A stretch of DNA of 64,000 nucleotides from Dictyostelium discoideum (taxonomy: Eukaryota). The notes beneath the pieces are model-generated. The model worked only from the letters and a program-made list of their open reading frames with translations. It had not been told where the DNA came from and searched no databases. Every line of letters starts with the position of its first letter. Position 1 is the stretch's first letter. Below, in pieces: positions 7,867 to 15,579 of this stretch. The DNA lies in contig CM000154.2 of NCBI GenBank assembly GCA_000004695.1, positions 1,536,001 through 1,600,000 of the forward strand, given 5' to 3'. A program made the position numbers and the translations under genes.

Positions 7867-8505
7867 ATGGAAACAAATAATAATAAGAATATTCAAGAAG
7901 ATATTGCTATAATTGGTTTTAGAATCCCAGGATGTCAAGATAATACCCCATCAGAGTTGTGGAATAATTTAATGAATAAATTTAGTGGTGTTGGTAAAAC
8001 TACTGAAAGATGGAGTGACAATTATCATTTATCTGGTGATATTAATAATGGAAATTCCGGTTTATTACCATTGAAAGAGTGGAAGAAATTCGATCCTGCT
8101 TTTTTTGGTATTAATCCTACCATGGTTTCCACAATTGATCCACAACAACGTATTCTATTAAAGTGTACATGGGAAGCATTGGAAGATGCTGGAATTGATC
8201 CAATTAAATTACGTGGTTCAAATACTTCAATTTTCATTGGTTGTTCAACTGGTGATTATCTAGACATGGTTAAGAGTAACAATGAAATCCAGACAAATCT
8301 ATTTGGTTCAGTTAATCATTCATTATCTAATAGAATTTCTTATTGTTTTGATTTCCATGGTGCTTCAATGACTATTGATTCTGCATGTTCTTCTTCATTA
8401 AACACAGTTTTATTAGGCTGTCAATCAATTAATCAAGGGAAATCTAATTTATGTATAGCTGGTGGTGTAAATTTTATTTTAGGTAAATAAGAATAAAAAA
8501 AAAAA

Positions 8506-8553
<48 letters not shown>

Positions 8554-11500: not shown

Positions 11501-14500
11501 ATTCAATTTCAGCATCAATTATTGTTATGATTAGCGATGGTACAGTATTTTTTGAAATTGAATCAGTATCTCTAAAATCTTTAATTCCTTTAAAAGATCC
11601 AATATCAATTGAAAATCCAACTGATGAATTATTTTCTTCTTACCTTCAATCAATTGATTCTCTAATTTCTGAACCATCATCATATAAATCGATTTATAAA
11701 AGAAATGAATTTATTTCAAGTGGAATGAGTGATTTATCAAGATCAGATTATCAACAATTTATTTCAACTTTATTATATACAAATTTAATTAAAAGAAATC
11801 AATCAATTGAAAGTGATTTAAGAAACCAAATTGAATTTGAAGAAATTAAAGCAAAATATTGCAAAAATTCAAAATTTGAAAGATTATTTACATTTGTTAT
11901 TGAAACCATTAAACAATATGATGGTATAAATGGTAATCTTAATAGTTGGAATGAAGGTAATATTGATATTTATAAAATTTTAATAAAATCAACAAGAATC
12001 ATTTCAAAATTATTATTCCCATTACAAGGTGAAGATACAACAATTGATACACCTCAATCTTTATTTGAAAATAATCTTTTAGATGACTTTTATAATATTA
12101 ATGGTAACACAGTTATTCAAAATCAATTGGTTGGTGAAATCATTACACAATCTATAAAACCATTAATTAATGAAAAGATGGTATTTAGAATATTAGAATT
12201 TGGAGGTGGTGTTGGATCTTTATCAATCGTAACATTGAATAAAATAAACCAATTACTTGAGCAACATCCAAACTTTCAAATTGATATAGAATATACATGG
12301 ACAGATATCTCACCTTCATTCATTCCAGATGCTAAAAAACTTCTTTCAAACATAAAAGGTGTTACTATTATTTATAGATCATTGGATCTAGAAGAATCAT
12401 TGATTGAAAAGCAATTATTAAAACCATCCTATTATGATTTTGTAATAATGTCAAATGTACTTCACGTTATTAAAGAAATTAAATTTGGTATTGATGAGAT
12501 CTATAAAGTATTATCGCCAAATGGTCAATTATTGTTCATTGAAACTCCTTATAGAATGTTAATATGTGATAGTATTTTTGGTGTATTCGATCAATGGTGG
12601 GGCTTCACAGATACTGGAATTAGAGTTGACAGATGTTGTATGAAACAAAAAACTTGGTTTAAATTACTATCAGAAAGTAATTATCAAGATATTATAATGT
12701 CGGATGATATAAAAGATTGTTGTTTTGTAATTCAAGCTAAAAAACCATCAATTTCATCATTAGAATATAAACTTAAAATTGATAGTCAAGAAAATGATAA
12801 AATAATTGTTTTTGGTGAAAATGATACTTTTATGAAATACTTAGAGAATAAATCAACAAAACAAATTATAAAAATTAAAACATGCCAACAATTTAGTGAT
12901 TTGATTACTAGTAATTCAAAAGAAATAAATAATCAATCAATTATTTATTTCATTAAAACATTAAATCAACTTTTAATTGAAAACTTTAAAGAGATAACCT
13001 TGGAATATATTCAAATAAATCAATTACTATTATCATCTGGTTTATCATGCAAACATATTTTACTTTTAAATCAATCCACAAGTGAAAATTATTTAGGTTC
13101 ATCAATTTCAGGTGCAGCAAGATATTTTGATGAATTCCCACCATTAAAACTGTATTCATTTGATTTTGATAAATACTCTTTAAATAATGAATCGATCAAT
13201 ATTATTGATGATATTATTGAACCAATTATCAAATCTATGAATAATTCAAATATCAGAAAAGAATTATTAGTTAGAAATAATAAAATTTTCTTTGAAAGAT
13301 ATAAACAAGAAAAAAGAATTAAGGAAAATTATAAATCAACATCATTCGAAAATGATAAATCATTATTTGTTCATTTAAATGCAAATCTGGAATATGAATT
13401 AAAATCTAAACAAGTCAAATTAAAACAAAATGAAATTGAAGTTAATGTAAAAGCAACTGGAATTAATTATAAAGATTATTTAGTTTATACTGCTATGACA
13501 CCAAGTGAATTAATAAATCATAAAGGTGAATCAAATCCAGAATTTGGCCACGATTTTTCAGGTATTATAACTCGTATTGGAGATGATGATGGTGATAATG
13601 ATAATGAATTTAAAGTTGGTGATCAAGTTTATGGTATTTGGTTCAATACTACTGCAAGTCATATTATAGTTGATAAAGAATTCCTTTGTCATAAACCAAG
13701 TAAACTTAGTCATACCATTGCATCTTCAATACCAGTTGTTTATATTACATCATTATATAGTTTATACAATATAGGTAATATTCAAAATGATGAATCTATA
13801 TTAATTCATTCAGCATCAGGTGGAATTGGTTTATCAGCATTAAATATATTAAAATGGAAGAATCACAAATCTCATATTTTCGTTACAGTTGGTTCAAAAG
13901 AAAAAGAAAAATATATTCATGATACTTATGGTGATTTTATTACAGGAATTTATTCAAGTAGAAATAAAGATTATTTAAAACTTATTAAAAGAAAGTTAAC
14001 AGAATTAGGATCAAATAAAAAGGGAGTAGATATTATATTGAATACTTTATCAAGTAGTGAACATATGGTATCAAATTTCAAATGTTTGAATCATAGAGGT
14101 AGAATCATTGATTTATCAATAACTCATTTAAACCATAATGAATATACTTGTAATAATAATTTCAAATACAACTATGGTTATCATAATGTTGAAGTTTTAT
14201 TTGTTAAAGGGGATATAATTTCAAAACTATTGAAAAATATTACCTCAGCAATTGAAAATGGATCATTATCCACTGGAATTCCAATCATTGAATTCAATGA
14301 TTCAGATTGTTTTAATGCTATTGAATTTATTAATAAACGTCAACATATTGGTAAGATTGTTGTTAACCATAATAAAGAAAATTTAATTCAAGAATTAATT
14401 AAAAAAACGAATTTACCAATTATCAAATCAAATTATCAAATCAATAGTGATCATCTAGGTAAAAATATATTGGTTACTGGTCAATCTGGTATTATATTGG

Positions 14501-15579
14501 AAATTTTGAAATGGATAGTTAAATATTCAACAAATGTTGAAAACATAATTATCCTATCAAGATCATCATTGAAATGGGAATTGGAATTATTAGTAAACAA
14601 AAATAAAAACAAATTGAATTTCATTTACAAAAGCGTTGATGTTGGTAATTCATTGGAAATTGAAAAAGTAATTGATGAAATTTTAATGGAAAACCCTCAA
14701 ATCAATAATGTAGATTCAATCTTTCATTATGCTTTTACTCAAATCTCTTGTAAAGAACATGAAATTGATCAAGTACATTTAAATGTATCACATCAAGCAA
14801 AAACCATGGGTGCAATTAATTTACATAACCAATCAATTAAAAGAAATTGGAAATTAATAAACTTTATAATGGCATCATCAGCAGCGGGTCTTATTGGATC
14901 AACTGATCAATGTTCATATGTTTGTTCAAGTAATGTTTTAGATACATTTTCAAAATATCGTAAACATGTATTAGGATTACCTTCAATTTGTATAAACTAT
15001 GGTTTAATTGAATCCACTGGTTTTGTATCTCGTAATCAATCAGTTGCAGTGATGTTGGATGGTCAAGGTATTAGACCAATGCAAACAAATCAAATTTTAG
15101 GATCATTAGATTTATTTATTCAAAATCCTTCAAAATCTACCAATATAATTTTAACCAGTTTCAATTTTAATGAATTTGCAACAGGTAATCTCCAACAATC
15201 AAATGTTCATAAATTTGATTTCCAGTTTAATTGTTGTTTATCACAAAAATCAAAATTAATGGCAAACAACCAAGCAAGTGAAAATCCTGTTAAAGATTTA
15301 TTAATCAATAATATATGTGAATTATTATCAATTGATGAGTCAAAATTAAACATTGATATTAGATTAATTGATTATGGTTCAGATTCATTAACAATTGTTC
15401 AAATTAAAAATTTAATTGATAAAAATCTATTAATACCAAATTTAATTTCAATTCAAATGTTACAAAATAACTCAATCTCTGACAATATAAAAATTTTAAC
15501 AGATTCCTACAACAAAAAGAAACAAAATGAACAAAATGAATTAAAAAATATAAAAGTTGGTTCATTTACTAAAAAATAA
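7867..15579 (+). CDS. Type I iterative highly reducing polyketide synthase, join(7867..8482,8600..15579). Domain order KS-AT-DH-cMT-ER-KR-ACP.
   Basis: KS motifs: [10 protein letters not shown] (active Cys), [21 protein letters not shown]: GHSLGE. DH: [14 protein letters not shown] (HxxxGxxxxP). C-methyltransferase: [12 protein letters not shown]: [16 protein letters not shown]: [10 protein letters not shown] Rossmann. ACP: [14 protein letters not shown] (Ser attachment). One phase-1 intron (G|GTAAAT at 8483, acceptor AATAG at 8599) splits the KS domain; the spliced frame reads [19 protein letters not shown]...[18 protein letters not shown]. No TE or chalcone-synthase domain follows the ACP. 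Confidence 0.85.

Follow-up and report, generated by a model that had tools for sequence, protein, structure and literature searches.

The pks26 gene and its surroundings

In the window, by which we mean the whole 64-kb stretch of DNA that was analysed, a polyketide synthase (PKS) gene lies on the plus strand, with its start ATG at 7867 and its stop codon at 15577-15579. An earlier sequence-only reading had placed it at 7867-15579, and these boundaries proved exact. Joining 7867-8482 to 8600-15579 gave a 2531-aa protein, residue-for-residue identical to XP_636757.1/Q54IX3 of D. discoideum AX4 (DDB_G0288457). The locus is D. discoideum AX4 pks26, "Probable polyketide synthase 26". The exact identity confirms Dictyostelium as the organism and settles which paralogue this is, since the gene already carries a name; both gene and name were known, and there is nothing new about the gene itself. 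Database entries describe it only as a 'probable polyketide synthase' or a 'hypothetical protein'.

Exon 1 (7867-8482) contains codons 1-205 and the first base of codon 206, and encodes the N-terminal half of the ketosynthase (KS) including its catalytic Cys174, while exon 2 (8600-15579) completes codon 206 and runs on through codon 2531 and the stop. The sole intron (8483-8599, plus strand) is 117 nt long, GT..AG, in phase 1 and almost pure A+T, and its removal yields exactly the annotated protein. It splits codon 206 within the KS, between Cys174 and His316, and is thus the single KS intron that had been proposed. The reading frame is unbroken over 7.6 kb.

In the 13% G+C intergenic region upstream, composition and motif scans picked out a C/A-rich island on the plus strand, CATCCACCCACTCCCACACACGAA, at 7582-7605, which is 262-285 bp before the ATG and is a putative developmental enhancer of pks26. 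Within it lie two heptamers, at -282/-272 with a spacing of 10 bp, which match the GBF response element, whose consensus is (T/G)G(T/G)G(T/G)G(T/G) (PMC2257962). The heptamers are short; paired clusters of this type number only 5 in the whole 64-kb window. The 'C/A-rich promoter island ~270 bp upstream' described earlier is thus a real element, better regarded as a pair of GBF-type sites (G-box/CA-rich element) than as a core promoter. The upstream regions of the orthologues were compared by motif scan and not by alignment, which is unreliable because these intergenic regions are too A/T-rich and repeat-laden, and similar same-strand GBF-type sites were observed upstream of all three pks26 orthologues. 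The paired sites suggest post-aggregative developmental expression of pks26.

In order to survey the neighbourhood, every ORF of at least 150 aa in the 64-kb window was compared with Pfam. The gene types found were Sel1-repeat, SNARE, transglutaminase-like, GNT-I, RNB, TAF6, UBR1-like, CEMIP/G8 and HMG-CoA synthase, and no hydrolase, acyltransferase, P450, O-methyltransferase or other tailoring or release enzyme was among them. We therefore rejected a local biosynthetic cluster around pks26, its neighbours being housekeeping or unrelated genes. The pks26 stop is not followed by any plus-strand ORF of at least 80 aa; the gene that comes next is convergent. Directly downstream, at 15897-18101 on the minus strand, are two convergent transglutaminase-like genes with a Cys-His-Asp core. 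The pair is syntenic with pks26 in all four species compared, which are so close that this synteny is uninformative.

Domain order and catalytic residues

A Pfam scan of the protein returned the order KS-AT-DH-MT-ER-KR-ACP, at E-values between 1e-65 and 1e-5 and with no domain beyond the ACP. This is the order that the sequence-only reading had derived from motifs, and the domain set bears out its call of a highly reducing type I PKS with a C-methyltransferase (cMT). Each domain family is represented by one stretch, making pks26 a single module, and the presence of one KS through to one ACP implies iterative use.

We compared the catalytic residue columns across a family alignment of 106 relatives; all domains lie on the plus strand. 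The intron-interrupted KS with its C-terminal extension spans 7897-9480 (residues 11-499, the KS being 11-384 and the extension running to 499; PF00109/PF02801/PF16197). Its catalytic triad, C174 (DSACSSS), H316 (HGTGT) and H356 (NIGH), falls in columns that are invariant or nearly so among the 106 relatives. The AT (9592-10560, residues 537-859; PF00698) has Ser630 in GHSLGE, the carboxylate-binding Arg655 and SSFH with Phe732-His733, and by AT motif rules it is of the malonyl type. The DH (10783-11583, residues 934-1200; PF21089/PF14765) shows HxxxGxxxxP as H948-IVKG-KIYF-P957, together with Tyr1076 and D1117-SCL-H1121.

The MT (12187-12618, residues 1402-1545; PF08242/PF13489) carries the SAM motif I ILEFGGGVG at 1403-1411 and a His1494/Glu1520 dyad, the two residues aligning to their His and Glu counterparts in the CMT structures of CurJ (5THY) and PksCT (5MPT). 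In the ER (13426-14364, residues 1815-2127; PF08240/PF00107/PF13602) the NADPH motif IHSASGGIG at 1941-1949 is intact, and the domain aligns over its full length to the ERs of Pks16, CurK and CurF. Missing catalytic residues in the ER or cMT had been named beforehand as what would change the predicted reduction and methylation pattern; the catalytic and cofactor motifs of both are intact. The ACP (15265-15540, residues 2428-2519; PF23297, 5e-29, and PF00550) has its phosphopantetheine site at Ser2468 in GSDSL. pks26 is thus an apparently intact fatty-acid-synthase-like PKS with a methyltransferase domain.

The catalytic subdomain of the KR (14470-15012, residues 2163-2343; PF08659) was aligned to Pks16 and human FAS. 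It carries a TGQSGI loop, Lys2273, Ser2298/2299 and Tyr2312, and four residues after this Tyr it has Ser2316 where the usual K-S-Y-N tetrad has Asn. This serine, which lay outside what the sequence-only reading had reported, is the sole active-site deviation in pks26. At the same position 61 of the 106 relatives have Asn, 41 Cys and 3 Ser, Ser being common only to the three closest orthologues of pks26. At Tyr+5 pks26 has an Asn, as do the 41 Cys-bearing relatives. We considered the TGQSGI glycine loop as the mark of a dead KR and discarded the idea, since a loop of the same type occurs in Pks16, a functional FAS. It is likely, judging from these residues, that the KR is active.

The protein stops 12 residues past the ACP, and there is therefore no thioesterase (TE), reductase or chalcone-synthase domain; accordingly, the Pfam scan detected neither PF00195 (chalcone synthase) nor PF07993 (NAD_binding_4 reductase) nor a TE after the ACP, as the earlier claim of a missing C-terminal release domain had it. 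Paralogues of about 2900-3100 aa do have C-terminal chalcone-synthase or thioester-reductase domains, whereas pks26 is neither a Steely-type PKS (FAS-type III PKS fusion) nor a TR-terminated dictyostelid PKS.

Conservation and known relatives

Three orthologues of pks26 in close species share 92, 87 and 81% identity with it and have an intron at the same position, 79-86 nt in length. Across the four genomes, dN/dS of pks26 against its orthologues was 0.15-0.20 overall, about 0.15 for the KR and 0.06-0.08 for the MT, the lowest value of all the domains. Purifying selection acts on every pks26 domain. A syntenic D. purpureum orthologue was looked for and none was found; DICPUDRAFT_147748 of that species falls near pks26 in a neighbour-joining tree of KS-AT sequences, and its locus is not syntenic. 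Dictyostelid PKS families are known to grow and shrink in a lineage-specific manner (PMC3188802). pks26 itself is a conserved singleton locus.

D. discoideum has 40 PKS genes (DdPKS), activated by DiSfp, whose products are mostly unknown (PMC12625978), in agreement with the large family of mostly uncharacterised pks genes that had been claimed. Only a few of them have a reported product (PMC12625978, PMC12828403), published AlphaFold 3 models cover all 40, and their architecture and off-loading have been discussed (PMC12828403). Searches for pks26, DDB_G0288457 and 'polyketide synthase 26' gave no match in open-access full texts or in the supplementary material on the structure of Pks16, and no report on its product, expression or knockout was found in the open-access literature.

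Two family members are informative for comparison. Pks5 (DDB_G0271520), the D. discoideum synthase of the polyene dictyodene (PMC9618038), is 2512 aa long, has about 53% identity to pks26 over 99% of the query, and shares with it the KS-AT-DH-MT-ER-KR-ACP order, the lack of a release domain and intact cMT motifs. The two differ in the ER motif, which is degenerate in Pks5 (LGSDGFG), consistent with its polyene products, and SASGGIG in pks26; at KR Tyr+4, where Pks5 has the canonical Asn and pks26 Ser; and in setting, Pks5 lying within a tandem array of PKS genes. Pks16, D. discoideum's principal fatty acid synthase (PDB 9NJU; PMC12828403), is the best solved relative, its match spanning residues 5-2512 of pks26. 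Both have a KR loop of the TGQxGI type and an intact ER motif, and neither has a thioesterase after the ACP. The structures of LovB and MAS were also among the PDB matches; this relation is distant and significant mainly over KS-AT.

Outside the dictyostelids, the lovastatin diketide synthase LovF, whose product is released by the acyltransferase LovD, and the mycobacterial mycocerosic acid synthase (MAS), whose product is released by PapA5, are likewise single iterative modules with a full reducing loop and no release domain in cis. LovF has the same KS-AT-DH-MT-ER-KR-ACP order; MAS, which has no MT, takes its branches from methylmalonyl-CoA. Fungal PKSs of this kind have their partner transferase in the same gene cluster, whereas no such gene lies near pks26.

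Predicted chemistry of pks26

Taken as a whole, pks26 is very probably a single-module, iterative, highly reducing type I PKS of the animal-FAS-like dictyostelid family, with a chemistry which we infer entirely from sequence and enzyme class. DiSfp, an Sfp-type transferase, would attach phosphopantetheine to Ser2468 of the ACP, the AT would load malonyl units, the KS would condense them repeatedly, and the chain would then be reduced by the KR, DH and ER. We expect the product to be an acyl chain that is largely saturated and probably methyl-branched; sequence does not show how long it is or in what pattern it is methylated. With no domain beyond the ACP, off-loading would have to fall to an enzyme encoded elsewhere or proceed through transfer by the AT or KS, and the same must hold for the FAS Pks16, which also has no TE.

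Some bacterial polyketides are released by amide synthases of the N-acetyltransferase fold, which offers an analogy for a transglutaminase-like release of the pks26 product. The ACP-ending dictyostelid PKSs, Pks16 and pks26 included, may share an undescribed off-loading route in which, at pks26, the adjacent transglutaminase-like pair could act as acyl-transfer or release enzymes in trans; adjacency is the one observation behind this idea, and we consider it very improbable. Such genes were rejected as partners of release-domain-less PKSs in general, being absent at the loci of Pks5, Pks16 and D. purpureum P0008.

The reading of pks26 as a methylating, fully reducing enzyme has to be weighed against one in which pks26, its cMT being silent, works in effect as an additional fatty acid synthase and, like Pks16 and Pks17, makes saturated straight acyl chains. 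Pks16 does have the same fold and domain order and matches pks26 over its whole length, and the ER and KR motifs of the two are alike. The MT of Pks16, however, is inactive, having lost its SAM motif and catalytic His (IIDLSSIY..., LLLVS), whereas pks26 keeps ILEFGGGVG, His1494 and Glu1520. Since the MT is also the most constrained domain of pks26, and identity to Pks16 is far below that to methylating paralogues, a silent cMT appears improbable. It is still harder to regard pks26 as a decaying or non-functional paralogue: its family turns over quickly, with the lineage-specific expansion and contraction noted above (PMC3188802), and a syntenic D. purpureum orthologue was not found, but the unbroken frame, the conserved intron, the full set of catalytic motifs and the low dN/dS across four genomes make such decay scarcely credible.

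A less remote alternative, which we nevertheless think unlikely, is that one of the reductive domains does not work or seldom acts, whether the KR through Ser2316 or the ER through programming, so that reduction would be incomplete and the product a polyene, keto or hydroxy polyketide resembling the Pks5 dictyodenes. The absence of the usual Asn at KR Tyr+4 is consistent with this, and the programming of an iterative enzyme is not readable from sequence. Even an intact domain may be passed over in some cycles or in all of them, which has been reported for the MT and DH of Pks5, and some Pks5 domains act only at certain chain lengths (PMC12828403). On the other hand, the KR of pks26 retains its Lys, Ser and Tyr, a family-typical NADPH loop, the Asn at Tyr+5 and a dN/dS of about 0.15, and the ER has an intact NADPH motif, unlike that of Pks5. 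Death of the KR is further disfavoured because the DH and ER, which would be left without substrate, are both under purifying selection.

The AX4 reference annotation has included pks26 ever since publication of the genome, and as a discovery the gene carries little weight. Its value is that of a well-characterised member of a 40-gene family which is for the most part unexplored, and our analysis adds that it is a conserved singleton under purifying selection, with an unusual KR serine and GBF-type upstream sites. Unlike Pks5, with its degenerate ER, and Pks16, with its dead MT, pks26 is predicted to be active in both cMT and ER, and is therefore a reasonable candidate for making a methyl-branched saturated lipid; the GBF-type sites hint at when in development its product may be looked for.

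Gene model and domain order of pks26

The window is A/T-rich throughout (G+C about 13-40%), and a poly(A)-rich stretch lies between two + strand ORFs, at 7867-8490 and 8659-15579. In the splice reconstruction, exon 1 (7867-8482, +) is joined to exon 2 (8600-15579, +) by removal of a 117-nt intron (8483-8599, +; GT at 8483, AG ending at 8599), which gives an unbroken 7596-nt frame encoding 2531 aa. By exact-sequence look-up, this product was identified as XP_636757.1 (EAL63254.1, UniProt Q54IX3), whose record is titled 'hypothetical protein DDB_G0288457 [Dictyostelium discoideum AX4]' and which carries the name 'Probable polyketide synthase 26'. 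Since the proteins are identical, the coordinates (7867-15579), organism and gene model of the sequence-only reading were exact, and the region is Pks26 itself, already annotated and named, and correctly interpreted. The searchable literature does not mention pks26 by name.

Domain boundaries were assigned by Pfam, which found the ketosynthase (KS) including its C-terminal extension (residues 11-499), acyltransferase (AT, 537-859), dehydratase (DH, 934-1200), methyltransferase (cMT, 1402-1545), MDR-type enoylreductase (ER, 1815-2127), ketoreductase (KR, 2163-2343) and ACP (2428-2519). The KS-AT-DH-cMT-ER-KR-ACP order read earlier from the sequence is thus borne out, as is its single intron within the KS, which splits codon 206, downstream of the catalytic Cys codon and upstream of that for the first catalytic His. 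No thioesterase (TE), thioester reductase or chalcone-synthase domain was detected by Pfam between the ACP and the protein end at residue 2531, as had also been claimed, and no + strand ORF of 80 aa or more follows the stop, the next gene being convergent. Since roughly half of the dictyostelid PKSs recovered by homology search likewise have no release domain, and Pks16, the main D. discoideum fatty acid synthase (FAS), also lacks a TE and faces the same release problem, the arrangement is normal for that part of the family and not a peculiarity of Pks26. Fungal highly reducing PKSs of the LovF type, whose products are off-loaded in trans, have a parallel architecture.

The closest characterised relatives of Pks26 are Pks5, the dictyodene synthase, and Pks16. 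Pks5 has the same architecture and about 53% identity but a degenerate ER, while Pks16, for which a structure is solved (PDB 9NJU), has a dead MT in place of the intact motifs of Pks26.

Active sites, orthologues and selection

Pks26 was aligned with 105 dictyostelid relatives found by homology search and with solved structures. In the family alignment the KS retains C174, H316 and H356; the AT has S630 within GHSLGE, R655 and an SSFH signature at F732-H733, which under published AT motif rules we take to specify malonyl units; the DH carries HxxxGxxxxP with H948 and D1117xxxH1121; and the ACP has S2468 within GSDSL. Missing catalytic residues in the cMT or ER, named earlier as the finding that would alter the predicted reduction and methylation pattern though not the PKS call, were not seen, the motifs of both domains being intact. 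The cMT retains the SAM motif ILEFGGGVG, and in alignment its H1494 and E1520 fall on the catalytic His-Glu pair of the CurJ (5THY) and PksCT (5MPT) C-methyltransferase structures, whereas the Pks16 MT has lost both the SAM motif and the catalytic His. The ER motif, IHSASGGIG, resembles that of Pks16 and is unlike the degenerate LGSDGFG of the polyene maker Pks5.

The KR is likely to be active as judged from its residues: K2273, S2298/2299 and Y2312 are kept, and the glycine loop TGQSGI, odd against mammalian FAS, is the family norm and of a type common to the functional Pks16. The Tyr+4 position, Asn in human FAS and Pks16, is Ser2316 in Pks26. Of the family sequences, 61 have Asn in this column, 41 have Cys and three have Ser; the Ser group consists of Pks26 with its two nearest orthologues, and the D. 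firmibasis residue is Cys. Cys- and Ser-bearing KRs, that of Pks26 among them, carry Asn at Tyr+5. By the motif that follows the catalytic Tyr (Pks26 residues 2312-2317, window ~14917-14934), dictyostelid PKS KRs divide into two classes: Y-x-x-A-N in 61/106, including Pks16 and Pks5, and Y-x-x-x-C/S-N in 44/106, including Pks26.

Three orthologues were identified: that of D. cf. discoideum is 92% identical, that of D. citrinum 87% and that of D. firmibasis 81%, and identity falls to ~55% for the next best relatives. In all three a single intron occupies the same codon position and the transglutaminase-like pair is kept downstream; a large gene, a SNARE gene and two Sel1-repeat genes are kept upstream. 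Nei-Gojobori dN/dS against the orthologues was 0.15-0.20 for the whole gene and below 0.32 for each domain, with the MT most constrained (0.06-0.08). These values speak for a functional cMT and against decay of the paralogue. Neighbour-joining on the KS-AT region places the orthologues next to a group whose members include DICPUDRAFT_147748 from D. purpureum and several reductase-terminated PKSs with a degenerate MT. DICPUDRAFT_147748 is at most a possible orthologue, since its locus shows no synteny with pks26, which fits the lineage-specific turnover reported for this family (PMC3188802).

Upstream island and genomic surroundings

The C/A-rich island placed ~270 bp upstream of pks26 is real and lies at 7582-7605 (CATCCACCCACTCCCACACACGAA), in intergenic DNA of 13% G+C. 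Two heptamers, CCACCCA and CCACACA, stand 10 bp apart and match the GBF-type site (T/G)G(T/G)G(T/G)G(T/G). In a motif scan the 64-kb window yielded no more than five paired clusters of this kind, and same-strand matches occur upstream of 3/3 orthologues (-245 to -235, -586 to -550 and -647/-541), although the upstream intergenic DNA of pks26 and its orthologues does not align. On these grounds the island is probably functional, and the label of candidate GBF-type developmental element suits it better than that of core promoter. The other four clusters lie at 23609-23631 (-), 25412-25428 (-), 26111-26128 (+) and 60356-60371 (-); the 25.4-26.2 kb group falls within a long, very A/T-rich intergenic stretch of extreme GC skew.

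Every larger ORF of the window (150 aa or more) was scanned with Pfam, which recognised Sel1-repeat, SNARE, transglutaminase-like, GNT-I, RNB exonuclease, TAF6, UBR1-like, CEMIP/G8 and HMG-CoA synthase genes around pks26, and no hydrolase, acyltransferase or tailoring enzyme. Pks26 is therefore a singleton, outside any biosynthetic cluster or tandem PKS array, whereas Pks5 and Pks16/17 each adjoin another PKS gene. The HMG-CoA synthase gene (46464-48009, -), a thiolase-fold enzyme of primary metabolism with its Pfam N- and C-terminal halves on two ORFs across a short intron, lies ~31 kb away, with no evidence tying it to pks26.

Directly upstream are the two neighbouring Sel1-repeat genes (4991-5919 and 6340-7314, +), whose order is unchanged in the three related species; between the two ORF pieces of the first lies a C-rich tract (5325-5346), probably intronic. 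Convergent to pks26 is a tandem pair of paralogous coding segments of transglutaminase-like type (PF01841; 15897-18101, -), which in those three species forms part of one long gene call of ~1250-1330 aa. The ORF at 18479-19822 (-), encoding a Pro/Gln/Thr-rich low-complexity protein with repeated 'SKRPPSQxFKLPP' and long poly-Q, has no Pfam match and may be the N-terminal part of that gene, as in the related-species annotation. Retrotransposon-like ORFs at 53056-55769 (-) start ~300 bp past the 3' end of a tRNA-Asn(GTT) gene (56073-56147, -), a position which suggests a TRE3-type tRNA-targeted non-LTR element. They comprise a Gag-like ORF and one with a C-terminal CPLC...H...C zinc-knuckle, without Pfam matches at E<=0.001, in a region of raised G+C (0.33-0.40) and marked strand skew broken by an N run (assembly gap) near 54.6 kb.

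Proposed mechanism and product

The gene model, domain order, active-site motifs and selection were demonstrated by our analysis; the steps of the mechanism are inferred from FAS-like iterative PKS enzymology and the Dictyostelium literature (PMC12828403; PMC12625978). S2468 of the ACP would be primed by DiSfp, the Dictyostelium Sfp-type phosphopantetheinyl transferase, after which the AT would load malonyl units and the KS extend the chain. In some cycles the cMT would methylate the alpha-carbon at the beta-keto stage, before reduction by KR, DH and ER, and the chain would have to be released in trans or via the AT or KS. Because the cMT and ER both appear active, the product of Pks26 would most likely be a largely saturated, methyl-branched acyl chain.
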